Positions 2,305 through 17,476 of a stretch of DNA of 21,339 nucleotides are shown here, piece by piece. The DNA is from a candidate division FCPU426 bacterium (GTDB lineage Bacteria; Oederibacteriota; JAAXVQ01; JAUVAV01), in assembly GCA_030637655.1 (NCBI GenBank), contig DAOWGI010000118.1, positions 1 through 21,339 on the forward strand. Reading direction: 5' to 3'. Within the stretch, counting starts at the first letter, position 1, and each line of letters begins with the position of its first letter. A program made the translations under genes and the position numbers. The notes beneath the pieces are model-generated. The model did no database searches. It saw only the letters and a program-made list of their open reading frames with translations, and was not told the origin of the DNA.

Positions 2305-2437
2305 GAGGGTTGTGCGAGACAACTATCTATACGGGCTCTATGGCCCAAAAAAGTTGGTCGCGGGGGCCACTTACAAAACGGGGTTATCTTCACCCAGTAG
2401 GGGCTCGGCCTCCCTCTCGCTTCCCGGTTACTTCTTC
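2305..2437 (-). ncRNA. Putative bridge RNA (target-binding and donor-binding loops) in the IS110 left end; ends approximate
   Basis: Two stem/internal-loop/hairpin units. One contains GCCCCUAC (2397-2404), identical to the target; the other contains AUAGAUAG (2323-2330), matching the donor junction CTATCTAT at 1091-1098. Confidence 0.75.
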
Positions 2438-3817: not shown

Positions 3818-6800
3818 TCACGCGGCGGATTTGAAGGAATAGCGTAAAGGGTACCAGCGAGGGTCAAGCTTGCGCCTGTCAATTTCCAGTTCCAAATAAT
3901 TCAGAATATCCAGATAAACGCCCAGTTGCCGTATAGTGACCGCATCCGGGATCCAGAGTGTTTGTTCATTGTTCCTTAGTCCACCATTTTCCAGCGGTAT
4001 TGGCTGACGCATCCGGGCAGGCATACATTGCATAATTTCATTAAACGTTACCAGCATATCTTCCAGTTCATCTCGTGCCGCCTGTTTCAACGGTCCTTTG
4101 GGCAGGGCCTGAACCTTGGAATAGGTATCTGCCAGCATCGAAAACATTTCAGTAATAAATTGTTCGGCATAGCGGCGATTAATATGGCGCGCAAAATTGA
4201 TCGCGGTTTTTTGAACCGGCGTCAACGCGTTTGGATTAAGCACCGCATAGGCTAGCGCTGATTGCGTCAATTCGCGGCTGATACGCGCATTCACCGCATC
4301 CAGATCGGCATGAAAACGCATAGTCTGGGTCCAAAGCGCGGCCTGGGCAAGCAGCGCGGCGATTTGATCGGTTTCTGACTGGAAAAACACGGCATCCGGC
4401 AGAAAGAGATCAAGCGTTCCCTGCTTGCTGATAGCATACGCACCTAACATATTACCTTTGGCAATATGTTGTAAAAAGGTCCTGCTCATTTCCGAGAGAG
4501 GCCGCACCCGGATTTGATTGGTATCAAACGAACGGGCGCTTAGGGGAGTATTTAGAACAGCCTGTTTTTCCCCAAGATTCAACCGTCTTATCCGGGGTAT
4601 TTCTTTTTTAGCTGAGGTTCCCTGACGCCTGGCAACCAACAGCAATCCCGTGCCTTGCAGTAGTCCGGGCAAGATATTCAAAACAGGCGCAAGCGGTGAA
4701 CGCAGCCGTAAAACAGGACGCATCAGGAATTGGTAGACGCGCAGCCGGCCGGGCCGCGTGCCTGTGAAAGAACGGTTGATGATCGAATCCGGCAAAAGCA
4801 TATCTTGAGTAATAGGTTCTGTCAGGGGCGTGTTGGTCTGCTTGATATTTTTAGCTGAATTTCCCTTCAGACGCGACCGAATACTACGTGCCCACTGGAT
4901 CAAGGTCCATACAACAGGAGCATGTTCCATAAGAGTTGCCCAGGCATGTCCTCTGCCCAAAGATTCCATTAATTCATGTGTCAGAATCCTTTTTTGCAGC
5001 CAGGCTGGGAAGAAAAGCACTGTTGGCGAAATCAGCACCTTGCCGGATTCACCCCAGCCGATCCGGTGGTCCAGAAAAAGGCCATGCCGGCTTGCAGACT
5101 GCTGAAATACGTCCTGCCACCTTTCCGGATAATCTGCCAGCTTGTCCCACTCTATGGGTTCTCTGGTAAGCAGACCCAGCTTTGTCTGTGGAATATCAAG
5201 ACCGCGTCTTTTCATCTGTTGAATAACCTCGCTAAACAACGATGCGGTCTGTGCCTGTTTCCGGCGCAACATGACTGAAGACATAGTTTCGATAGGAGGC
5301 ACGGCATTATGATATGCCCAGTAAAGCAGACGCAGCAGATGAGCTATCAGACCGCCCAGCAATCCGGTAATCCCCATCATGGCTAGGGATATATCCCAGG
5401 GCAGCATGGCGCTAAACACAGCAACTGTAAGACCAATCCTGCTGACGCGCAAAAGGATTGCGCCCAGATTGACAATCAGGTTGCCATCCTTAGGAGTGAC
5501 AATCGTTTTCAGTTCGTCAAAACTACCTCTGTCTTTATTAATATTATTGAACCTATTAATAGCCTGCTCCGAAGGCTCTCCCGCCAATATTCCGAATGGG
5601 ATTGGTTCTGATTCACGCTTTTTTTTCTTTGCCTTTTTCTGGACTCCCTCCCTAATCCTGGCATCAATTTCAGCCTGGCTATACTTCGGCTTCTTGTAAC
5701 CTATCACGTTTTTCACCGCAGCGGAGATAAGCTCAAAGTCATCCTCTGTGTGATTTTCAGCCTTTTGGGCCAGATAGGCTTCTGTAACCTGCTGCAAGGT
5801 AATGTTCTTGGCCTGTTCCTTAATCTGACTTTTATGCAGCCGTATTTCTTCTTCTTCATGCAATGTTTCCAGCAGTTCGCGCAATACGACTGTCTGAAGA
5901 CCGTTTGCGCTTCCCTGTTTGGCAAAAGCTTTTGCCGTCTCATACTCAATCAGATTCACCGCTTGCAGCAAGCGAACCAGACTTGGCACATCGGCAACAA
6001 TGATTTTTTCAGGCTCGGGCATGAGAACGGTCTCTTCCTCTGGTTTCGCGGCCACAGCCTCATTTTCGTTCGCTTCCTGAGCCGGGAGTACGGGCGAAAA
6101 CTGCTCTTTGGTCTCGCTGGACCTTGCAAGCGCAGGTTCCGCAATTGCCTGTCTAACTTCTCCAATGGTTCCTGCCGGCACTTCATCCTGCAGTAAAATT
6201 CCAACCAAATACTGCTGGATCTCTGTATCAGCAGATTTGAATTTCTCTTGCCATTTATGAATGGCATCCGACAGCTTGGTATCTTTGGTTAGAAAAGACG
6301 TATAGCTCGGCAAGAGAGTTTCCAAGCGGCTGCGGAGAGTTTTGATTGTGGCTATTGGCATGCTGCTTCGCACCCAGCCTAGGGCTGATTCCACCAATGT
6401 TTTATTCTCCGAATATTTAACTGCAATATATAGAATGTTCTCCAGGGTTGTTTTCTCGGATAATTTCCGCCGATATATGCGCTGCAGGCCTTTGTCCTTT
6501 TGCAGCAAATCCGAATCCATTGCCATCACCTCGTCAAACTGCGGTGGATTGCGCAACACATATTCAATAATCTCATATTCAGCGCCGAATTTTTCCAGAC
6601 GCTGGACCAGGTCCTTGATCTCAGCCACTGATAACGGCGATGCAATCATAGCCACGATAGTTGACATCGTCCGCTCGCAAAAGAAATCAACAATATCCAG
6701 AATATCCTTATCCGGTCGTGCGTTGCGCAAGATGGTGTGCAACAGTTGTCCGGAAATTTCAATCTTTTTGCGTTTCTGGACCATATATAATTTTTCCAAC

Positions 6801-9800
6801 AGCTCGAGTTTGGCATGAATTTTATGAATAGAAAGTTCGCGGCGCATCGTATCAATATGTCCGTCAGTTATGTCGAACAGAGGCTGCGCATGGATCGCCT
6901 TCATAATAGTCTCAACCAGCAATGGTTCCACTGCAGGATCGGTCTTGATTTTTTCCTTTAGCGCCGGAACAGTACCGATGTCCGATAATTTCAGTTTATT
7001 CCTAACTTGCGCAAAGGATTCCTGCTCATTTAAAAGCCCCTGCCGGCCGAATGCCTCGATAATCTCCACAAATTCTTCTGCCATGTTTTGCTTGCGCAAA
7101 GCAATCACAGATTTTATATAAGATTTACACGCCTTAATGGTCTTGATTTGATTGGCCTTCTTTGCGAGAAAATGTTTTTTGATTTCAGCAATGTTCAGCC
7201 TATATTTAAAGACTACCGGAAAAATATTCCTCTTGTAACCTTTGGGAGCCAATTGCGGCAACAGATCCAGCATATCCTCTATGGGATGAACGCTGGCCAC
7301 AATTATTTCAATATCGGTCTTGTGCAATAAACCGAGATTACGCAGTTCCTTTAACAATGCAATTAATTCAGCAGAGGGCTTATTGGAAACCAGCAAATTT
7401 TTGATCATCGTCCGCGTATAAAAATCGTCCTTAGCATCACTCGTTTGTGCGATATAATCAATTATATCCAGTTTGAGCAAAAACTTGGTCCAGCCTGCGG
7501 CCAGCAGGCTGTTTTTCATATCAGTGGCAAACTGTCGCTTCTTCTTATCGGCAATTATCGGCAGCTGCATGTGATCCAGAATCGCGGAGAATACGGTCAC
7601 GTGGTTTTTTCCGGACATACTCATACCATCCAGTTGCTGCCTGACACCCTGGCCCTCGATCCAGCCGTGTTTGTCCAGCAAATTTAAAACACTTTCAGTC
7701 TGCCGGCCCAGCTCATCCGAAGCGGAGATGGCCGGCACACCTTTGGCAATACGCAATGCCTGCTCAATATCCTTGGCCGCGAACCCGCTTTCTGAAAGCT
7801 CTTTAATCATAATTGACAAATTTCTCCGGACCCCGTCTGCCTCCAATTGATGCACAGCATGCAGAGTCTTGCCCAGTTTAGGCGAGAACATGGCAGCTCG
7901 CTCACGGCCGGCCAGCACACCCATTACCACATAGCGGTCATACTCATCCAGGTTTTTCAGTGCGGCCAGTTCCCCGGAATACTGATCAGCAGTGCCTGCC
8001 TTGAGCAAAAACACTTCCCGCACAGCCTTGGACACAGCATCCCTGTTTTCCTTGCTCAGCGCCTCGCTTAGCAGTACCTGAATATCCCGGGAAGAGAGAG
8101 GTGAATGTAGGGAATGATTAATCCGAATGATTTCAGCAATATCCGCCAGCGAAGCCTGGCGCTCGGTCATTACTTTGAAGATCCGATTTTTCTCTTCTTT
8201 AGCAGGCAGCTTGGCAATGGCTTTGAAAACCGTATCCAGGAATTGGTCAGAAGTTAAATTTGCCAAAGCCTTTTGGTAATACTCTTGATAGATGCCATGG
8301 TTTTCTAGCTGCTCGAGAATGTGATCAATCCGCTCCTGGGAACGTCTGCTGCGAATGATAGCAACAACGGTTTTGCCGGATTGTTCCTGTTCTAACAAGT
8401 ATTTATATATAATCTTCCGTTTTTCCTCAACATCCTTGATTCCCCGCAGCGCCATCTCAAACATAATCCGCGTTATATTCATGTCGTATTTGTTGATTCG
8501 GAGCATATCAATGAGAAGCGGTATATTCCGCAGTAGTGTTTTCAGGGGTAGCCGGTTGCGGATATCAGTCCCGGGCCCGAGCGCGCCCACGGCGAATTCA
8601 GAACGTTGTATTGTATTGACTAATTTTTCAATGACTTGGGCATCGGTCTCTGCTTCAAGCACGCGCACTTCATTTATGACCTCATTCGCCTCATCCTTTG
8701 ATATAATTTTGTTATTAGCCAATTCATTAAGAATTACCTGCGCCTGCGCTTCACGTTTCCTTATCTCCGCCTCTTTATCCCTATACTCTCTAATAAGTTG
8801 CGGGATATGATCATAACGGTTTCTCCAATTGGGACACTGTTCCTTAATATCATTCGCGTTCTCTCCCAGGAAAGTTCGGGTGACACCTGTAACCGGCACG
8901 GCGCTCCTGACAATCTTCATCACAGTCGACTCATCCTGCCAGGTTTGCATTAATGGCCTGACTATCTCTCTCAACTCCTCATATGAGCGTCCGCTATTGA
9001 ATATCCAGGCAGCCGCCATTCCGGTAATGCGTTGCTCAGGCTCTTCATGATCCAACAGCTTGTCAATCACCGGCCGGAGTCTTGTTGCATCATGGCTAGT
9101 GCGGAAATACGACTGCAACAGACTGCCTGTGATAAACCCTTTCTCCACATCCGCCGGCAAAATGACCTCAAAAATATCCATTTTATCGGCAAATCGGAAG
9201 AATCCGTGAGCGTGAACCATTTGTGCCTGGGTTTCCGAAAAGATAGGCTTAAAATTATGGCTGCTATGGCCGATGTTTTTGATAATGATGCCCAGATAAT
9301 AATCAACTGTGCGGTTGATCTCAGGCACCTGTGACAGTTTGAATTCGATTGCGCTGCGGTTAAGCCAGCCATAATTGGAGAGCTTGTCTATAAGGTCGAT
9401 TATTTCATCCGGCAAGATCAAAGGATGGCGCGGGCATACCTGGGCAATCGCTTTTTCGATTATTATTGGAGAAAAGTCTTTATTCATGAGCACCTGGTAC
9501 AGGAGAGGCTCGTTTTCTTCCTGGACCCACTCCGGATGTTCTTCAATAATCTCTTTGGCAGTTGTGACACATGCTTTCAGTTGCGGGCTATCAGTCGCGT
9601 ATTCCAACACTGTCGTCTTGGTCTTGGCCGGCACACTGGCATTCATTGCCGCAGGCCCGGCGCCCATCATGCCCAGCACACGCAGCCACACTGGAAAATC
9701 TTCCGGGCTTTGCAAAACCGCCTTATGATATTTAAAGTGAAAATACATGGACGCAGGCCGGCTGATTATGATGATAGTGGTAACCGCGGCTGCCATAGGG

Positions 9801-12800
9801 GTTACGGCAAAAGCCGCCAGAACAATGCCAAAATAAAACCAGCCATAAAATACCAGCCCGAGAAAATATAAACGGCCCCAGTTTTTTATCCTGGCCGGCC
9901 AGGTTTCTAAGCGCATCGGCACAATCTTGATTTCCTCTGTTTCCGGATTACATTGGACTTTAAAAACTCCAAAACCATGACCCAGGGCATAAACCAGGTT
10001 GGTCAGCAAAACCGCTGCCAACATGGTGATCCGGGGATCAATAGGCAGGGCATTGAACGCTACGACGAGCCTGGGGCCAACTATATAAGTAACCCACAAG
10101 GATTCAACCAGCGGCGCGGTGTACTTGGCGTTGTAATCAAAAATTTCTTTCTGTGACAGGCTCCTGCCCAGGATGCGCGGCATGATTTCTTCAGTCAGCC
10201 GGATCATGAAGTGATACATTCCCAACACAACCCCGAATTCATCCTGCTTGAGTTTTGCTGTTCGGAGACTCAATTTTTTCGCCAAACCACCGCTTGTCAG
10301 GCTTTTGAGGACCACGACGCATTTAGCCAAGCCAACGCGCAAATAATCCCTGCCCCACTGGATCAAAGTCCATACAACAGGAGCATGTTCCATAAGAGTT
10401 GCCAGGGCATGTCCTCTGCCCAGAGATTCGATTAATTCATGTGTCAGAATCCTTTTTTGCAGCCAGGCGGGGAAAAAAAGCACTGTTGGTGAAATCAGCA
10501 CTCTGGCGGATTCGCCCCTGCCGATCCGGTGGTCCAGAAATAACCCCTGCCAGGCTTTAGGTTGTTGAAATATCTCTTGCCACCTTTTTGGACTATCTGC
10601 CAGCGCGTCCCATTCGATATTTTTTTTGGTTAGCAGGCCCAGATCTGTATTTGGGATATCAAGGCCGCGTCTTTTCATCTGTTGAATAACCTCGCTAAAC
10701 AACGATGCGGTCTGCGCCTGTTTCTGACGCAACAGACTTGGAGACATTAACGCGGGTGGGGGCACGGTATTATGATATGCCCAGCAAAGCAGGCGCAGTA
10801 GATGAGCGATCAGGCCGCTCAGCAATCCGGCAATTGCCGGCATGGCTAGGGATATATCCCAGGGCAGGATGGCGCTAAACAGAGCAACTGCCAGACCGAT
10901 CCTGCTGACGCGCAAAAGAATTGCGCCCAGATTAACAATCAAGTTTCCGCCTTCAGGAATGACCCCCATTTCAAGATCGCTAATACTATCCACTTTAGTA
11001 TTAATAGTCTGGAATGTGCCATTATTCTTTTCAACCGGGTCTATATCTCCAGCACTAAAATCCGGTAAAATTCCGGATTTTAGTGCTTCCAATCCATCTT
11101 CATTTGTCGCTGCATAGTCTTCCTTATTACGCCTGAGTTTAAACGGCTTACGCTTCTTACGCTGGGACTTGGTTAATCTTTTCATTGCAATAGAAATAAG
11201 CGCTGAGTTATTATCCGTGCCATATTTAGCCTTCAGTGCCAGATAGGTATCTATAAGCTCCTGCAAGGTAAGCTTCTTGGCATGTTTCGCAATATCACTG
11301 CTAAGCAGAAATATTTTATTTTGTTTACTGAATGTTTCCAGCACTTCTCTCAGTACAACTCTCTGAAGACCATTTGCGCTTCCATTTTTGGCAAAATCTT
11401 TGGCTGTCTTTTCATTAATCAGATTCTCCTTTTGCAGCATGCGCACCAGACTGGGCACATCAAGAACACTATTTTCTTCAGCCTCGGGCTTGACAACAGC
11501 CTTTTCCGCTGGTCCCGCGGCAACGGTTTTTTCTGCACTCGATTCCTGAACCGCGACCACTTCCTCGGGCTGGTCTTTGGTCTTGCTGGTCTTCGCAATC
11601 GTCGGTTCCGGATCCGGCCGTGCATATGACGCTAAAACCCAGTCAATAATAAAACTGTCATGTCCTTTTTGCCGCAACCACGCGCACATGGTTTTCATAT
11701 CCGTCGCAGGATCTGCTCTTCTTAATTCAAAATAATCATACAGGCATTGTGCCCGGTAACCGGGTATAATTTTTTCAGCGATAATTGCCTCTCTCACCTC
11801 TCCAATGGTCTTTGCCGGGATCTCAGCCTGCAGCAAAACATCAACCATATCCCACTGAATTCCTGTACCAGCAGATTTGAATTTATTTTGCCATTGAAAA
11901 ACAGCAGCCGTATCCGGCTCTTTGGGCTCTTCTTTTACCAAAGACGTTTCATCCGGCTCTTCAGTATCTTCATCCGGCTCCTTGATATCTTCGGTTTCAA
12001 AAGGCGTATATCCAGGCAAGAGAGTTTCCAAGCGGCTGCGAAGGGTTTTGATTGTGGATATTGGCATGCTGCTTCGCACCCAGCCTGTGGCTGATGCAAC
12101 CAATTTTTCATTCTCCGGATATGTAGCCGCAATATATAGAATGTCCTTCAGCGTTGATTGCTTGGATAATTTTTTCCGATATATGTACTGCATATGTTTG
12201 TCCTTTTGCAGCAAAGCAGGATTCATTGCCATGACCTCGTCAAAACGCTGCGGATTGCGCAATACATATTCAATAATCGCATATTCGGCACCATGTTTTT
12301 TCAGACACGGGACCATGTCCTTGATCTCAGCCACTGACAAAGGAGAGGAAATTATACTTTTAATCGTCTCCATAGCATATCCGGAAGCAAAATTAATAAT
12401 TGTCTGAATATCTTCATCAGCCCTTGCGCTGCGAATAGCAGTGTGCAACAGCCATCCGGAAAGTTTTATCCTCTTTCGTTTCTGGACCACATATAATTTT
12501 TTCAACAGGAAGCGCTTGGCATAAAGTTCATGAATAGACAGATCGCGGCTCATCAACGCGATAGGGCTATCATTTATATTAAACAAAGACTTCGCTTTGA
12601 TCGCCCGCATAATACTCTCAACCAGCAATGGTTCCACTGCAGGATCAGTCTTGATTTTTTCCTTCAGCGCCGGAACAATACCGATGTTCGATAACTCCAG
12701 TTTATTTCTGAGTTGCGCAAAGGTTTCCTGTTGATCTAAAAGCTCCTGCCGGCCGAATGCTTTGACAATCTCTACAAATTTTTCTGCCATGTTCTGCTTG

Positions 12801-15800
12801 CGCAACGCAAGCACAGATTTTACAAAAGTTACACATTCCGCTTTAATCTCGAATTTTTTGGCCTTTTTCGCGAGAAAATGTTCCTTTATTTCGGCAAGGT
12901 TAAGCTGATATTTAAAGACTGTCAGAAAAATATTCCCCTTATAACCCTTCGCAGCCAGTTGCGGCAACAACTCCAGTATGTCCCCTGTGGAATGGGTGCT
13001 GGCCACAATTCTTTCAATAGCGGACTTGCGCAAAAAAACGAGATCACGCAGCGCCTTTAACAATTTGATTAGTTCAACCGGGGACTTCCTGGAAAGCAGC
13101 AGATTTTCAATTGTTATACGTGTATAAAAACCGCCTCTGTCATCAGGCGTTTGCGCGATATAATCAATTACATCCAGTTTTAGTAAAAATTTGGTCCAGC
13201 CCTTGGCCATCAGATGACTTTTCATTTCAGCAGTAAAATTCCGCTTCTCTTTATCAGTAATTATCAGCAGTTGCATGTGATCCAGAATCGCCGAGAATAC
13301 AGCCGCGTGGTTCTTCCCGGAGATACTCATGCCATCCAGTTGCTGCCTGACACCCTGGCCATCGATCCAGCTGTGCCGATCCAGCAAATTCAAGACCTTT
13401 TCAGTCTGCCTGCCCAACTCATCCGAAGTGGAAATAGCCGGCGCCCCTTTGGCAATACGCAAAGCCTGCTCAACATCCTTGGCCGCGAACCTGCGCTCTA
13501 AAAGAAGTCTGAACATGAGCGCTGAATTTGTCTGAATACCGTCCGCCTCCAAATGATGCACAGCATGCAGCGCCTGGCCAAGTCTGGGCGAGAACATGGC
13601 AGCTCGCTCACGGCCGGCCAGCACACCAATTATCACATAGCGGTCATACTCATTCAGGCTTTTCAGCGTGGTCAATTCCCCGGAATACTGGGCATCTGTG
13701 TTGGCATTGGGCAGAAACACTTCCCGCACAGCCTTAGACACACCATCCCTGTTTTCCTTGCTCAGTGCCTCGCTTAGCAGCACCTGGATATCCCGGGGTG
13801 AAAGCGGCGAATGTTCGGAACGATTAATTTGGATGATCTCAGCAATATCCGCCAGCGAGGCTTGTCGCTTGACCATTGCTGCAAAGGCCCGGTTTTTCTC
13901 TTTTTCAATGGGCAGCTTAGTGATGGCTTTAAAAATTGTATCCAGGAATTGGTCGGAAATTCCATTTGCCAAAGCCGGTTGGTAATACTTTTGACGGATG
14001 CTGTGTTTTTTAAGCTGCTCTAAGATATGATCAATACGCTGCTGGGAACGTCTGCTGCGGATGATATAGAGAAGTGTTCTAGTGGATCGATCCTGCTCTT
14101 GCAAGTACTTGTGGATAATCTTCTGTTTTTCCCCAATCTCCTTGGTTCCCGCTAAGGCTGCCTCAAAAACCGGACATGAAATGAATCGGCGGGATTTATT
14201 GATCTTGATCATATCAATCAAGAGCGGCATGTTCAGTAAAAACCGGTTCAGTGTCATTTGATTGCTATCAAATCGCAGCTTAGCTCCAGGCATGAGCGCG
14301 CCTGCGGTGAATTTAGGATTTTGAATGGTTTTGACCAGCACTTGAATCACCTGACCATCGCTCTCTGCGTTTAGCGCACGCACTTGGTCCATGGCTTTAT
14401 TCGCCTTATAGTCTGAGATAATTTTCTTCTTAGCCAATTCATCTAGAATTTCCTGTGCCAGCGCTTCGCGTTTGCTTATTTCCGCTGCATTATCCCTATA
14501 TTCTCTGATAAGTTTCTTAATGTGGTTATCACAGTCTGCCCAATTGGTATGCTTTTGCTTTATTTTTTCCGCTTCATCACCCAGAAAATTTTGGGTGATA
14601 AACTCAATAGGCAAGGCACTAGTGACAATATTTTTCACAAGAGACTGATAATACCAGGTTTTCATCAATGGCTTGACAATCTGTTTCAACTCAGCATACG
14701 AACGTCCGCTATTGAATATTCTGGAAGCTGCTATGCCGGTAATGCGCTGCTCAGGATCATCATGATAAAACAGCTTGTCAATAAACACGCGGAGTCTTGC
14801 CGCATTATGACTGGTGCTGAAATACAACTGCAACAGATGGCCTGTGATAAATCCTTTTTCCACATCATTTGAAGTAATGGCCTCAAAAATATCCATTTTG
14901 TCGGCAAATCGGAAAAATCCGTGCGCGTGAACTATTTGTGCCTGGGCATCTGAAAAGATGGGCTTGAAATTATGGTTTTTATGGCCGATGTTTTTGATAA
15001 TGATACCAAGATAATAATCTACTGTGCGGTTGATCTCAGGCACCTGTGACAGTTCGAATTCAATTGCGCTGCGGTTAAGCCAGCCGCAATTGGAGAGCCT
15101 GTCTATAAGACGGCTTATTTCATCCGGTAAGGCCAAGGGTTCGCGCGGACAGACCTTGGCAATCGCTTTTTCGATTATTATGGAAGAAAAGTCTTTATTC
15201 ATGAGCGCCTGGTAAAGGCGCGGTTCGTTTTCTTCCTGGATCCAATCCTTATGCTCTACAATAATCTTCCTGGCTGTTGTGACACAGGCCTCCAGTTGCG
15301 GACTATCAGTCTTGTATTCCGGCACTGTTGTCTTGGTTGGCGCGTAAGCGCTCATGTCCTTAAGCCCGACGCCCATCATGCCCAGCATACTCAGCCCAAA
15401 CGGAAATTTTTCCGGATTTTGCCAAAACGGCGTTGCAAACATGCCAATTATTCCGATGATGACAACAGCCGCGGCACTGTAAATAAAAATTTCATTACGC
15501 GACATGCTCTTGGCCCGCGACTCGTAAAATTCATACACCAGCGATCGGGCCTGTGCCAATAAAGGGGTTAGCTTGCGCAGTTGTCCCACCAGGACCGGCA
15601 GGAGCCGCCAGGCCAGATAAAGTCCTACAGTTTCGTGCAGATTCAAATCCGCCAATGAACGGGTTGGCATGGAATCCAGCATGACTTGCACCTGTTTTCG
15701 ATTTTCCGGCTTAATCAGCATGATATATTCGTTCGGAAATACGGCTTTTCTCAGGATATCTTCTTCCTTAAGCCTTAGGCGCTGCTTGCCCGTACAGACC

Positions 15801-17476
15801 ACAGCCAGCATATCTTCCTGATTAGCTGTAACCGGGAAGCTGAACACCTGGTTGGAATGGATATTTACATCCTCAACGGACTTGACCTGGTAATCGTCCA
15901 GTATTTTCTCCACCTGCTGCCAGACTTCCTGCGCAACCTTGGTCCGCATAAAATTATCTGCCCTGGCTTTGATAACAATAAACAATTCCAGCAGCCTGTT
16001 AAAGAGCGCTCTTCGTTCCGAGGATTTGCCTGGCGCGGATACGCGGTGGGGATCCGAAAGCGTGGGCAGATACGGCTCCAGGGTAAAAACACGCTGTTCC
16101 TGGGAAAGAAGTTTTTCCAGCGGTGTCTTGCGGTTGCGCAACAGGGTGAAATAGGGATTCACCAGATCCTGCTGCGTAAGCTTGGGCTTGAGTGAGAGGA
16201 TGGAAATCCCTTGCGCCTGCAAACCGGCCAGCACATGTTCAGTATGGAAACCACCGGTCACCAGCACCATCAGTTTTTCCTGCTGCTTTTGCATGTTGCG
16301 CAGCGTATTTTGCACAAACGCTCTGCTGCGTTCATCCGCCACCCGGTAAAAATCAGCCACAGCATTAAGAAGTCCGTCGAGCATGAAAATTTCCGGATCC
16401 ATTTCCAGCTCGCCAGTCTTGTCATAGCTGCGGATAAAATCAACAAACACCTGAACCTGGAAATCACCACGGTTTTGGCGAAAGACCTCCAGTTCCTCCG
16501 GACTACCGGAAATGTTGATTAGCTTCTCAATAATTGAGAGCCGGAGCAGCCGGCGGTCCAGCTCGCGCTCCTGTGTGTTAATATAAAAATATTCGCGCAA
16601 AGTGTATTCCAGTATTTCCAGTTCCTTAAAAAGCGCGTCCGCGTCTATTTTGGGCGTGAAAAGCGCCCGGCGGTTCCTGGCATACCTGAGAGCAGTGGGA
16701 TACGCAGCCAGGTCATAACCGAGCCGGCGCGCTGTTTTCACTAAAAAAAGCGTCTGCGTAAGAACATTGTTCTTGCCGTCGCGGTAGAGCAGGCACTGCT
16801 TGTCAAATTTCAGCAAACGACTGTTATAAAGCCCGGGCTTGAGCGCGTCCAGGCTGTCGCGCAGATCATAGCAATAGCCCTGCCCCTCATCCTTGAGAAT
16901 GAATTCCACTGAGCGCTTATTGCGTTTATAGAGATCCTCGTTCTCAATTCCTTCCAACCTTACGGGATATTCACCTGTAGCCGCGTAGAATTCAGCGCCT
17001 GAGAGTTTACCCTGGCGCACAAAATAGTCACTGACCTCGGTCCGGATTTTCTTAATCGGAAAAGTTCTGATCTTGGTGGTATCAATCGGGAGTGATGTCC
17101 CCTCCATTGAAACCAGACGCAACCCGTGTTTCTCAGCCAGCAGATGTATAATTTGGGCAATATTCATCTGCACTTCATAATTGCAGTGAAGATCCTGAAT
17201 ATGCACCACCAAACGGTTGTCACCCTGGAGAAGGTGGCTCACGGTTCCCAGTTTTTCGGGAATAAAAACCGTCTTATTATTAAATATAATAGACGGCTGA
17301 CTGATCGAATAATTGGCAGAATCAAATGCCCAGGTAAAATATGGGGAAATAAAGGTCAATATCACGGCAAGAGCAATGATCCGCACCCAATTGCGCTGTT
17401 CTGGTTTTTGCCAGGCTGATAATGATATTATCATAGGCTCAATTGTCTGCCTGGTGTTGGACTTGCTATTAAACAT
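3818..17476 (-). CDS. Giant (4552 aa) membrane-associated multidomain protein with a large internal duplication
   Basis: Uninterrupted 13.66-kb ORF with a CAGGAG RBS before ATG 17476. N-terminal hydrophobic signal/anchor, HIQDLH...SMEG...RS...GGFH domain, several TM segments and two ~1600-1680-aa homologous blocks. Confidence 0.93.
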   Translation of the reverse strand: MFNSKSNTRQTIEPMIISLSAWQKPEQRNWVRIIALAVILTFISPYFTWAFDSANYSISQPSIIFNNKTVFIPEKLGTVSHLLQGDNRLVVHIQDLHCNYEVQMNIAQIIHLLAEKHGLRLVSMEGTSLPIDTTKIRTFPIKKIRTEVSDYFVRQGKLSGAEFYAATGEYPVRLEGIENEDLYKRNKRSVEFILKDEGQGYCYDLRDSLDALKPGLYNSRLLKFDKQCLLYRDGKNNVLTQTLFLVKTARRLGYDLAAYPTALRYARNRRALFTPKIDADALFKELEILEYTLREYFYINTQERELDRRLLRLSIIEKLINISGSPEELEVFRQNRGDFQVQVFVDFIRSYDKTGELEMDPEIFMLDGLLNAVADFYRVADERSRAFVQNTLRNMQKQQEKLMVLVTGGFHTEHVLAGLQAQGISILSLKPKLTQQDLVNPYFTLLRNRKTPLEKLLSQEQRVFTLEPYLPTLSDPHRVSAPGKSSERRALFNRLLELFIVIKARADNFMRTKVAQEVWQQVEKILDDYQVKSVEDVNIHSNQVFSFPVTANQEDMLAVVCTGKQRLRLKEEDILRKAVFPNEYIMLIKPENRKQVQVMLDSMPTRSLADLNLHETVGLYLAWRLLPVLVGQLRKLTPLLAQARSLVYEFYESRAKSMSRNEIFIYSAAAVVIIGIIGMFATPFWQNPEKFPFGLSMLGMMGVGLKDMSAYAPTKTTVPEYKTDSPQLEACVTTARKIIVEHKDWIQEENEPRLYQALMNKDFSSIIIEKAIAKVCPREPLALPDEISRLIDRLSNCGWLNRSAIEFELSQVPEINRTVDYYLGIIIKNIGHKNHNFKPIFSDAQAQIVHAHGFFRFADKMDIFEAITSNDVEKGFITGHLLQLYFSTSHNAARLRVFIDKLFYHDDPEQRITGIAASRIFNSGRSYAELKQIVKPLMKTWYYQSLVKNIVTSALPIEFITQNFLGDEAEKIKQKHTNWADCDNHIKKLIREYRDNAAEISKREALAQEILDELAKKKIISDYKANKAMDQVRALNAESDGQVIQVLVKTIQNPKFTAGALMPGAKLRFDSNQMTLNRFLLNMPLLIDMIKINKSRRFISCPVFEAALAGTKEIGEKQKIIHKYLQEQDRSTRTLLYIIRSRRSQQRIDHILEQLKKHSIRQKYYQPALANGISDQFLDTIFKAITKLPIEKEKNRAFAAMVKRQASLADIAEIIQINRSEHSPLSPRDIQVLLSEALSKENRDGVSKAVREVFLPNANTDAQYSGELTTLKSLNEYDRYVIIGVLAGRERAAMFSPRLGQALHAVHHLEADGIQTNSALMFRLLLERRFAAKDVEQALRIAKGAPAISTSDELGRQTEKVLNLLDRHSWIDGQGVRQQLDGMSISGKNHAAVFSAILDHMQLLIITDKEKRNFTAEMKSHLMAKGWTKFLLKLDVIDYIAQTPDDRGGFYTRITIENLLLSRKSPVELIKLLKALRDLVFLRKSAIERIVASTHSTGDILELLPQLAAKGYKGNIFLTVFKYQLNLAEIKEHFLAKKAKKFEIKAECVTFVKSVLALRKQNMAEKFVEIVKAFGRQELLDQQETFAQLRNKLELSNIGIVPALKEKIKTDPAVEPLLVESIMRAIKAKSLFNINDSPIALMSRDLSIHELYAKRFLLKKLYVVQKRKRIKLSGWLLHTAIRSARADEDIQTIINFASGYAMETIKSIISSPLSVAEIKDMVPCLKKHGAEYAIIEYVLRNPQRFDEVMAMNPALLQKDKHMQYIYRKKLSKQSTLKDILYIAATYPENEKLVASATGWVRSSMPISTIKTLRSRLETLLPGYTPFETEDIKEPDEDTEEPDETSLVKEEPKEPDTAAVFQWQNKFKSAGTGIQWDMVDVLLQAEIPAKTIGEVREAIIAEKIIPGYRAQCLYDYFELRRADPATDMKTMCAWLRQKGHDSFIIDWVLASYARPDPEPTIAKTSKTKDQPEEVVAVQESSAEKTVAAGPAEKAVVKPEAEENSVLDVPSLVRMLQKENLINEKTAKDFAKNGSANGLQRVVLREVLETFSKQNKIFLLSSDIAKHAKKLTLQELIDTYLALKAKYGTDNNSALISIAMKRLTKSQRKKRKPFKLRRNKEDYAATNEDGLEALKSGILPDFSAGDIDPVEKNNGTFQTINTKVDSISDLEMGVIPEGGNLIVNLGAILLRVSRIGLAVALFSAILPWDISLAMPAIAGLLSGLIAHLLRLLCWAYHNTVPPPALMSPSLLRQKQAQTASLFSEVIQQMKRRGLDIPNTDLGLLTKKNIEWDALADSPKRWQEIFQQPKAWQGLFLDHRIGRGESARVLISPTVLFFPAWLQKRILTHELIESLGRGHALATLMEHAPVVWTLIQWGRDYLRVGLAKCVVVLKSLTSGGLAKKLSLRTAKLKQDEFGVVLGMYHFMIRLTEEIMPRILGRSLSQKEIFDYNAKYTAPLVESLWVTYIVGPRLVVAFNALPIDPRITMLAAVLLTNLVYALGHGFGVFKVQCNPETEEIKIVPMRLETWPARIKNWGRLYFLGLVFYGWFYFGIVLAAFAVTPMAAAVTTIIIISRPASMYFHFKYHKAVLQSPEDFPVWLRVLGMMGAGPAAMNASVPAKTKTTVLEYATDSPQLKACVTTAKEIIEEHPEWVQEENEPLLYQVLMNKDFSPIIIEKAIAQVCPRHPLILPDEIIDLIDKLSNYGWLNRSAIEFKLSQVPEINRTVDYYLGIIIKNIGHSSHNFKPIFSETQAQMVHAHGFFRFADKMDIFEVILPADVEKGFITGSLLQSYFRTSHDATRLRPVIDKLLDHEEPEQRITGMAAAWIFNSGRSYEELREIVRPLMQTWQDESTVMKIVRSAVPVTGVTRTFLGENANDIKEQCPNWRNRYDHIPQLIREYRDKEAEIRKREAQAQVILNELANNKIISKDEANEVINEVRVLEAETDAQVIEKLVNTIQRSEFAVGALGPGTDIRNRLPLKTLLRNIPLLIDMLRINKYDMNITRIMFEMALRGIKDVEEKRKIIYKYLLEQEQSGKTVVAIIRSRRSQERIDHILEQLENHGIYQEYYQKALANLTSDQFLDTVFKAIAKLPAKEEKNRIFKVMTERQASLADIAEIIRINHSLHSPLSSRDIQVLLSEALSKENRDAVSKAVREVFLLKAGTADQYSGELAALKNLDEYDRYVVMGVLAGRERAAMFSPKLGKTLHAVHQLEADGVRRNLSIMIKELSESGFAAKDIEQALRIAKGVPAISASDELGRQTESVLNLLDKHGWIEGQGVRQQLDGMSMSGKNHVTVFSAILDHMQLPIIADKKKRQFATDMKNSLLAAGWTKFLLKLDIIDYIAQTSDAKDDFYTRTMIKNLLVSNKPSAELIALLKELRNLGLLHKTDIEIIVASVHPIEDMLDLLPQLAPKGYKRNIFPVVFKYRLNIAEIKKHFLAKKANQIKTIKACKSYIKSVIALRKQNMAEEFVEIIEAFGRQGLLNEQESFAQVRNKLKLSDIGTVPALKEKIKTDPAVEPLLVETIMKAIHAQPLFDITDGHIDTMRRELSIHKIHAKLELLEKLYMVQKRKKIEISGQLLHTILRNARPDKDILDIVDFFCERTMSTIVAMIASPLSVAEIKDLVQRLEKFGAEYEIIEYVLRNPPQFDEVMAMDSDLLQKDKGLQRIYRRKLSEKTTLENILYIAVKYSENKTLVESALGWVRSSMPIATIKTLRSRLETLLPSYTSFLTKDTKLSDAIHKWQEKFKSADTEIQQYLVGILLQDEVPAGTIGEVRQAIAEPALARSSETKEQFSPVLPAQEANENEAVAAKPEEETVLMPEPEKIIVADVPSLVRLLQAVNLIEYETAKAFAKQGSANGLQTVVLRELLETLHEEEEIRLHKSQIKEQAKNITLQQVTEAYLAQKAENHTEDDFELISAAVKNVIGYKKPKYSQAEIDARIREGVQKKAKKKKRESEPIPFGILAGEPSEQAINRFNNINKDRGSFDELKTIVTPKDGNLIVNLGAILLRVSRIGLTVAVFSAMLPWDISLAMMGITGLLGGLIAHLLRLLYWAYHNAVPPIETMSSVMLRRKQAQTASLFSEVIQQMKRRGLDIPQTKLGLLTREPIEWDKLADYPERWQDVFQQSASRHGLFLDHRIGWGESGKVLISPTVLFFPAWLQKRILTHELMESLGRGHAWATLMEHAPVVWTLIQWARSIRSRLKGNSAKNIKQTNTPLTEPITQDMLLPDSIINRSFTGTRPGRLRVYQFLMRPVLRLRSPLAPVLNILPGLLQGTGLLLVARRQGTSAKKEIPRIRRLNLGEKQAVLNTPLSARSFDTNQIRVRPLSEMSRTFLQHIAKGNMLGAYAISKQGTLDLFLPDAVFFQSETDQIAALLAQAALWTQTMRFHADLDAVNARISRELTQSALAYAVLNPNALTPVQKTAINFARHINRRYAEQFITEMFSMLADTYSKVQALPKGPLKQAARDELEDMLVTFNEIMQCMPARMRQPIPLENGGLRNNEQTLWIPDAVTIRQLGVYLDILNYLELEIDRRKLDPRWYPLRYSFKSAA
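4891..9678 (-). repeat. Internal duplication copy B of the giant gene (~4.8 kb)
   Basis: Same anchors (cgcccatcatgcccagca 9661-9678; cccactggatcaa 4891). Long shared peptides such as SQVPEINRTVDYYLGIIIKNIGH and VPALKEKIKTDPAVEPLLVE. Confidence 0.92.
10354..15387 (-). repeat. Internal duplication copy A of the giant gene (~5.0 kb)
   Basis: Starts at LGMMG (cgcccatcatgcccagca, 15370-15387) and ends at HAPVVWTLIQW. Colinear with 4891-9678. Confidence 0.92.

Follow-up and report, generated by a model that had tools for sequence, protein, structure and literature searches.

An intact IS110-family insertion sequence with a putative two-loop bridge RNA upstream of its recombinase gene at a host REP hairpin

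A stretch of 21,339 nt of contig DAOWGI010000118.1 of a candidate division FCPU426 bacterium (assembly GCA_030637655.1) is here called the window. It carries an insertion sequence (IS) of the IS110 family, and a preliminary description of this DNA had read the non-coding left end of the element as a guide RNA of the kind known from IS621. This raises the question where the element begins and ends, which DNA bases such an RNA would read and whether IS621 is the proper model for it. Our answer, to which we assign a probability of roughly 80% as the best explanation as a whole, is that the window contains one copy of an intact, uncharacterised IS110-family insertion sequence. Its anatomy, the covariation of guides with flanking DNA and the conservation of the RNA fold are observed directly. 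The RNA would read the feet of host repetitive extragenic palindrome (REP) hairpins around a TA core.

Element, core dinucleotide and target site

Positions are those of the window unless another contig or a locus is named, and the recombinase sense (minus) strand is taken as the top strand. The recombinase matches the Pfam families DEDD_Tnp_IS110 (PF01548; 2.1e-13) and Transposase_20 (PF02371; 1.7e-21). When the protein was aligned with 38 relatives of 47-97% identity, residues D14, E59, D97 and D100 and the motif G254-x2-P257-x4-S262-G were found to be invariant or nearly so in the 39 sequences. They correspond to the DEDD tetrad and the motif with the catalytic serine that Siddiquee 2024 describes in this family. 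Non-coding sequence occupies 222 nt upstream of the gene and 29 nt downstream of it.

Ends of the element were located by comparison with homologous loci. All nine loci that have a left end start with GTAAGGG, GTAATGG or GGTAAGG, which places the boundary at 2490-2492, and right ends of relatives all finish with ...TTGACRTTAnCCATAGATA. Direct reading of the two junctions gives TA as the sole sequence common to both, and UA is found at the core position in three arms of the RNA (GCCCC-UA, UG-UA and AUAGA-UA); on these two grounds we conclude that the core is TA. The element body then spans 1094-2490, and its length is 1,399 bp counting one core.

Both ends carry subterminal inverted repeats, which in the window are identical at 11 of 12 positions. 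Such repeats are present in all eight relatives compared (11-24 aligned positions), and their sequence shifts at both ends together. At locus L014 the right end (about 2650-2665 of that locus) contains an extra GATA, CCATAGATAGATA-GGGTG, a 4-base duplication beside the core. In circular form, TTGACA of the right end and TATGGT of the left end (2486-2481) are separated by 17 nt (11 nt of right end, TA and 4 nt of left end), so that the circle junction would reconstitute a sigma-70-type promoter, TTGACA-17 nt-TATGGT. In the integrated copy, the minus strand shows no promoter-like site.

Removal of the element rebuilds the target ...GGATG-TA-GGGGCGAGGTCACCTCGCCC, which is an ordinary REP head. 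This hairpin type has 33 listed copies in the genome, of which 30 have GT in front of them and two have GC; the window copy alone follows AT, which belongs to the end of the insertion sequence. At other places in the genome, REP copies contain GTAGGGGC uninterrupted, and two hairpin types are headed by it. This sequence occurs 616 times in the genome versus 64.7 expected, and 236 TGTAGGGGC sites fit both target arms of the RNA. Judged from these sequences, the target appears to be the GTAG foot of host REP hairpins, with ATGTAGGGGCGAGG as candidate target sequence for the recombinase and its RNA. By eye, the right flank starts a GC-rich hairpin in 11 of 12 loci, L038 being the exception, and the hairpin structure of the target may add specificity. 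An unoccupied paralogous site, REP-gccaggat-GTAGGGGCGAGG, was observed on contig C57 (1290-1340) and displays the same tandem-REP arrangement as the insertion site in the window.

Fold of the RNA and reading of the junctions

The minimum-energy fold of 2270-2470 (-68.1 kcal/mol) contains two internal-loop hairpins, both at the minus-strand positions where the preliminary description had placed them. Shuffled sequences have a mean of -53.35 (sd 4.28; z = -3.45), none of 200 being as stable. A covariance model was built from ten homologous left ends, and relatives keep the two-loop fold. In this alignment, to which the structure proposed previously was applied with closing helices added, 90.3% of cells are standard pairs. 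Changes on both sides of a pair are seen in four pairs (11 cells), and none of 500 shuffles reaches the covariation score. As a control, partners were slid by one column, which left at most 56.3% paired. Together with the Pfam matches and the conserved residues, the fold upholds the claim that the non-coding left end encodes a bridge-type RNA with two loops alongside an intact IS110-family recombinase.

Individual stems differ in what they reveal. One pair of the closing helix nGAG/CUCn occurs as A-U, C-G and G-C. Loop 1 is laid out, on the minus strand, as GGCC (2410-2407), GCCCCUAC (2404-2397), GGGU/ACCC, UGUA (2375-2372) and GGCC (2368-2365); its outer stem has a compensatory CG-to-UA change in two sequences, and the consensus fold gives it an 11/12-nt internal loop. 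Loop 2 consists of a U-run (2352-2347), the GGGC/GCCC stem and AUAGAUAG (2330-2323), likewise on the minus strand, and two pairs of its inner stem show compensatory change. The GCGA/UCGC stem formerly proposed at the base of loop 2 did not hold: it is paired in 71.8% of cells with zero compensatory changes. The conserved base stem is GA-CAACU/AGUUG-UC (2318-2359), which is kept in distant relatives and is invariant, hence uninformative with respect to covariation. At the position of the 5' stem-loop relatives have other sequences, which look self-complementary by eye in the alignment. An Rfam scan of 900-2800 at E <= 10 returned four chance-level matches and no bridge-RNA family. In 100 loci (266,456 bases) our covariance model, R1, found only nine training loci and one relic on contig C35, so that relatives farther away have no RNA recognisable by this model.

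The strongest evidence for guides comes from the target loop. Its 5' arm, GCCCCUAC, has a complement that begins with the final base of the left flank, continues through the core and takes in five bases of the adjoining right flank, and in eight of the nine loci with both RNA and right flank the arm matches flank bases 1-5 exactly. Four guide/flank variants occur: GCCCC/GGGGC (five matching loci), UUCCC/GGGAA, UGCCC/GGGCA and CACCC/GGGTG. The guide has switched two bases in three independent cases, each with a matching flank, for which the chance is roughly (1/16)^3. GGGGC likewise adjoins three more right ends that have no RNA of their own, those of L045, of L047 and of a relic on contig C77. 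The 3' arm runs from two bases of the left flank through the core into two bases at the start of the left end, the latter two being a handshake-type extension. Its base before G-UA equals the left-flank base in seven of nine loci, and its fifth base tracks the left end in all nine: G where the element starts with AG (six loci), U where it starts with AT (three loci). Guides and flanks thus covary among the relatives. This probably represents natural reprogramming, in which the four variants each fit the REP hairpin foot of a different host, and it is from this covariation that the term "programmable" may be justified.

The 3' arm of the donor loop is invariant in all ten RNAs; ATAGATA stands at the right end of all 12 loci, with G following it in 11. 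Four guides had been proposed at the outset. Three of these arms match the junctions (GCCCCUAC, UGUA and AUAGAUAG), while the fourth, AACUUUU in the 5' arm of the donor loop, lacks covariation and is considered below. The extensions of both 3' arms (AG and G) fit the recombinant product, not the substrate. The same product-matching logic has been reported for the handshake guides of IS621 (Hiraizumi 2024).

Transcription, binding of the RNA by the protein and recombination chemistry can be outlined from these features. In the excised circle, TTGACA of the right end and TATGGT of the left end would form the sigma-70-type promoter across the TA core, and from it a bridge RNA of about 160-200 nt followed by the recombinase mRNA would be transcribed. 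Within the RNA-protein complex, loop 1 would pair with the GTAG foot of a host REP hairpin and loop 2 with the junction of the element itself. The U-rich 5' arm of loop 2 may form a weak pairing with the left end, whose start is rich in purines, or the inverted repeats may serve instead. The DEDD/Ser recombinase would then exchange strands at TA.

Coordinates of all features are listed in Table 1. Elsewhere in the window, the minus strand contains a giant open reading frame of 4,552 codons (3818-17476) whose halves look near-duplicate, stretches of about 150 residues occurring twice in the translation.

Table 1. Features of the insertion sequence, its RNA and its insertion site
Feature	Positions	Strand	Remarks
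Whole insertion sequence	1092-2492	minus	Both TA core copies included; 9 homologous left ends and 12 right ends
Core dinucleotide TA, left junction	2491-2492	minus	G-TA-A
Core dinucleotide TA, right junction	1092-1093	minus	A-TA-G; right end ...CCATAGA-TA-GGGGC
Left subterminal inverted repeat TATGGTTAATGT	2475-2486	minus	Imperfect extension to about 2463; contains TATGGT (-10 box)
Right subterminal inverted repeat ACATTACCCATA	1096-1107	minus	Matches left repeat at 11 of 12 positions
-35 box TTGACA in right end	1105-1110	minus	Direct reading; 17 nt from TATGGT in circular form
5' stem-loop CCUCC-AAUCA-GGAG	2457-2470	minus	In minimum-energy fold
Bridge RNA core fold, ~160 nt	2293-2452	minus	Closed by GGUUAG/CUAACC and nGAG/CUCn stems; 10-sequence alignment, RNAalifold
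Target-binding loop hairpin (loop 1)	2365-2410	minus	Outer stem GGCC/GGCC, inner stem GGGU/ACCC
Target loop 5' arm GCCCCUAC	2397-2404	minus	Complementary to top strand G-TA-GGGGC
Target loop 3' arm UG-UA-AG	2370-2375	minus	Identical to top strand TG-TA-AG
Donor-binding loop hairpin (loop 2)	2314-2361	minus	Inner stem GGGC/GCCC conserved
Donor loop 5' arm ACUUUUUU	2347-2354	minus	Possible weak guide for TA-AGGGT, G-U pairs needed
Donor loop 3' arm AUAGA-UA-G (AUAGAUAG)	2323-2330	minus	Identical to right end ATAGA, core and first right-flank base
Ribosome-binding site AAGGAG	2275-2280	minus	Six bases before ATG; direct reading
Recombinase gene, 381 aa + stop	1123-2268	minus	DEDD RuvC-like domain and Tnp domain
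Right part of interrupted host REP hairpin GGGGCGAGGTCACCTCGCCC (target)	1072-1091	minus	Genome copy comparison
Separate intact host REP hairpin beside element, outside the insertion sequence	2502-2526	minus	26 genome copies listed, all preceded by GT

Relatives, relics and alternative explanations

Relatives of the element were found on metagenome contigs only (L038-L047, 49-90% protein identity), apart from L014, which comes from one genome of the same phylum (55%). A search of a genome collection with the single protein gave no match and one with the alignment gave only relatives at <=33% identity; in a plasmid collection the best match is 34.8% identical. The host genome itself contains two relics. 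One, on contig C35 (44293-44395; locus L003, 1452-1571), is a left-end remnant with the start GTAGGGGTATAAATAAT that keeps the closing stem and loop 2; the whole target loop is gone and no recombinase gene follows. It is the sole match of R1 outside the training loci (38 bits). The other, on the minus strand of contig C77 (28503-28725; locus L002), comprises the terminal ~200 bases of the gene for a related recombinase and a right end (78% identity). It is joined to another REP hairpin at CATAGATA-GGGGCG and therefore records one more insertion into a site of this type.

A cold-seep metagenome of another study (run X5) contains a separate 1,404-nt contig equivalent to 1087-2493 of the window with 42 differences, that is, a 97% identical version of the element. 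Its depth is 98.7 versus 5.66 for the flanking contig, a value that sums over organisms and is not a copy number, and several contigs of 31-52 nt branch at 1085-1087. This pattern is as expected for a repeat collapsed by the assembler whose insertion sites share only the guide-specified bases, and it suggests that the element has many insertion sites in the cold-seep community. The extent of the 1,404-nt contig also backs, independently of the homologous loci, the boundaries given above.

Several observations weigh against the explanation preferred here. The assembly of 120 contigs holds one full copy. L038, a 90% identical relative, has the guide GCCCCUAC/GCCCC and the right flank TTGTC; its right junction (about 1366-1380 of that locus) has the flank sequence TTGTCATGGG, and the mismatch may reflect an off-target or half-matched insertion or an assembly join. 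The arms of loop 2 are invariant, so that their role is read from sequence identity, and the donor 5' arm does not follow changes of the left end (G to T in L042-L044; AGGAG in L014). The RNA alignment is small, its ten sequences having an effective number of 1.18, and most stem columns never vary. Matches between a single sequence and its junctions are weak evidence: among 5,000 dinucleotide shuffles of the left end, an 8-mer target match appeared in 491 (9.8%), a 7-mer donor match in 1,925 (38.5%) and both in 167 (3.3%). The case for guides is strong because of covariation among relatives, not because of such single-sequence matches. A 681-nt contig of a related strain (flanks about 95% identical) joins 987 to 2511 and skips 1,523 bases. 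Missing from it are the element itself, 104 bases beside the right end, among them the target REP, and 18 bases of the adjacent REP; as more than the insertion sequence is missing, we rejected it as an empty site. The intergenic REP array varies between strains. Finally, a single RNA-library run yielded two contigs, both in the recombinase gene; the library may hold DNA and is uninformative on the left end.

We consider it unlikely, but worth weighing, that the copy is an evolutionary leftover, intact but no longer mobile or expressed in its host, with an RNA that has no present function there. The single full copy is found despite 236 perfect TGTAGGGGC sites, the related elements on C35 and C77 are decayed, the integrated copy has no promoter-like site on its own strand, and the left end has no RNA cover in the one RNA-library run. 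Yet the reading frame, the catalytic residues, both ends and all stems of the RNA are intact, and the 97% identical version reaches high depth with several different flanks in another sample. Reliance on a promoter formed only at the circle junction is, moreover, reported as normal for the IS110 family. A part of the scheme that could well be otherwise, at somewhat less than even odds, is the fourth arm. The 5' arm of loop 2 might be no guide at all, the left end being read by the recombinase through the subterminal inverted repeats, so that three arms pair with DNA. The arm CAACUUUUUU hardly varies, although the left end may start with AGGGT, with ATGGT (L042-L044) or with AGGAG (L014), pairing of ACUUUU with the true left-end start TA-AGGGT needs two G-U pairs in a register that shifts between loci, and RNAalifold pairs the arm of the free RNA with the 3' arm (CAACU/AGUUG). 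The repeats vary jointly at both ends in all eight loci, and recognition of the ends may differ in elements with such repeats according to Siddiquee 2024. Against this, all four arms pair in IS621, as published; the U-rich arm fits every observed purine-rich left-end start if G-U is allowed; and the geometry of loop 2 mirrors that of loop 1, both 5' arms being 11 nt long. The arm may be a degenerate guide, or the left end may be read through the inverted repeats instead. A longer fourth guide using ACCA was rejected, its matching bases being absent in L039 and L046.

Far less probable is the version given in the preliminary description, in which an IS621-type element has a CT core, the target CGCCC-CT-AC and the donor AACCT-CT-ATCTAT, with its left boundary in the GC-rich hairpin at 2502-2526. 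GCCCCUAC does contain CU, the published target of IS621 itself, ATCAGGCCTAC, ends similarly, and the plus strand of the right junction reads CGCCC-CT-ATCTAT. With a CT core, however, the other junction would be ...ACCC-TT-ACATCC and the rebuilt target would gain a T seen in no listed REP copy; 56 of 59 listed copies have GTAGGGGC-type heads. TA alone is common to both junctions and UA occupies the core position in three arms. The hairpin at 2502-2526 is a host repeat, as its 26 listed copies and its absence from homologous left ends demonstrate, and with the boundary at 2490-2492 the left half of the circle junction drawn from it was wrong and the donor half AACCT-CT does not exist. The strand order is also the reverse of that in IS621, and the TA core, the long inverted repeats and a protein match of E = 8e-6 do not agree with an IS621-type element. 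Scarcely credible, in our view, is the explanation that the structured left end is a mere 5' untranslated region that regulates translation of the recombinase, with coincidental matches to the flanks. The RNA lies directly upstream of the ribosome-binding site, and single-sequence matches are common at both sites, as the shuffles demonstrate. On the contrary, three independent guide changes accompanied by complementary flank changes are hard to obtain by chance, the handshake base covaries in nine of nine loci, and an unrelated IS1111-type relative (see below) has the same architecture.

Relation to IS621, seekRNA elements and other relatives

The bridge-RNA element described here resembles IS621 and ISCro4 (IS622) in several respects. 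In all of them the RNA lies upstream of the recombinase and consists of a 5' stem-loop and two internal-loop hairpins, the target loop coming first. The arms are directed at opposite strands by base pairing, with an overlap at a 2-nt core, handshake extensions of 1-2 nt stand 3' of the core-binding bases, the promoter is split across the junction of right end (RE) and left end (LE), and a REP repeat serves as target. The element differs from IS621 in its core (CT in IS621, TA here) and in its subterminal inverted repeats (2-3 bp in IS621, 17-24 bp here). The proteins are barely alignable: the match to IS621 has E = 8e-6, values for IS621 and ISCro4 being about 1e-5, in the Tnp domain only.

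A further difference from IS621 and ISCro4 concerns strand order, which is reversed. Arm GCCCCUAC pairs with the top strand at the right-flank side, and in the RNA the complement of the top strand comes before the match to the bottom strand. The donor of IS621 is written RE-core-LE, with the RNA transcribed from RE into LE (Durrant 2024; Hiraizumi 2024). ISEc21 is listed with the same strand order as IS621 and four IS1111-type elements with the reversed one (Siddiquee 2024; table in the review PMC13604230). The order of IS621 was taken here from three published accounts. By this comparison, the window element appears to read DNA in the IS1111/seekRNA strand order, opposite to that of IS621.

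ISPa11, a REP-targeting IS1111 element with a seekRNA (Siddiquee 2024), likewise has the top-strand complement 5' of the bottom-strand match. Its top-strand target in the Pseudomonas REP, given as GTAGGGCG in PMC13604230, agrees with the target found here in orientation and almost entirely in sequence; according to the same review, IS621 reads the opposite REP foot to ISPa11. Subterminal inverted repeats are another feature shared with seekRNA elements of IS1111 type, those of the window family being longer than the 11-13 bp quoted by Siddiquee 2024. The RNA of IS1111-type elements, in contrast, is located downstream of the recombinase gene, where the window element has only the 29 nt after the stop codon. 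The window element has a clear second (donor) internal loop, unlike these seekRNAs, and its ends extend past the repeats by 4 and 2 nt plus core, compared with 7 and 3 nt.

Multi-copy relatives provide an additional comparison. Four of them, at 27-31% identity, were characterised and all are IS1111-type. The elements G047, G074 and G076, considered as controls of IS621-type polarity, were rejected as such, having proved IS1111-type. A 14-copy IS1111-type relative (loci L133-L169 of CAVXPX, one Acidobacteriota assembly) has a downstream RNA and the repeats ATGAAAAC/GTTTTCAT. Its arms, GUCAUCCUU followed by CGCUCAGAUG, match the target CGCTCAG/GATGAC in the same layout as in the window element, and both run 1-3 bases into the ends of the element, which is handshake-like. 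The nearest outgroup consists of recombinases of about 415 aa at 33-38% identity (L054, L057, L059, L063, L073 and L084), common in metagenomes, with an upstream non-coding region of about 285 nt and a -35 box, CTTGACA, in the right end. The upstream RNA of L054 has, towards its end, a 9-mer equal to the right end and, towards its beginning, a 7-mer that complements the right junction, which hints that this locus may share the strand order of the window element.

Two published cases can be compared by description only. ISMtsp17 belongs to the rare elements whose repeat and protein are of IS1111 type although the non-coding region lies upstream, as in the window element; Siddiquee 2024 mentions its gene layout and does not analyse its RNA. 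ISPpu10 and ISPpu9 of Pseudomonas putida are described as inserting at a conserved intergenic repeat with a GC-rich stem-loop beside the guide-matched bases. For ISPpu10 the structure of the target is reported to add specificity, a role that the REP hairpin might possibly play here.

Durrant 2024 gives the share of elements with a predicted bridge RNA as 85.7% for IS110 and 93.0% for IS1111, and a preprint of 2026 (Evo-PIN/COMPASS) reports 86 covariance models and 32,190 bridge RNAs with many folds unlike that of IS621. Its database, or the supplementary tables of Durrant 2024, may already include the cluster to which the RNA of the window belongs. In a limited literature search, no account was found of an upstream two-loop RNA with IS1111 polarity. 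We can entertain, without favouring it, the idea that the combination of an upstream two-loop RNA, IS1111-type polarity, a palindromic TA core and ~20-bp repeats, which perhaps replace one guide, is an architecture not previously described; the ~415-aa outgroup may share it. If so, it would represent an evolutionary intermediate between the IS110 and IS1111 groups and a scaffold whose core preference differs from the CT/GT cores in use to date. If the enzyme proves active, a TA core would bring a wider range of sites within reach of bridge recombination. An upstream RNA does not imply the strand order of IS621, and pipelines that call guides on the assumption of IS621 geometry and a CT core would misread such elements, as the preliminary description did. 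The locus adds one more uncharacterised bridge-RNA element, from uncultured cold-seep bacteria, to tens of thousands predicted, and compared with known systems it is a further example of a known bridge-RNA system with a modest architectural twist.

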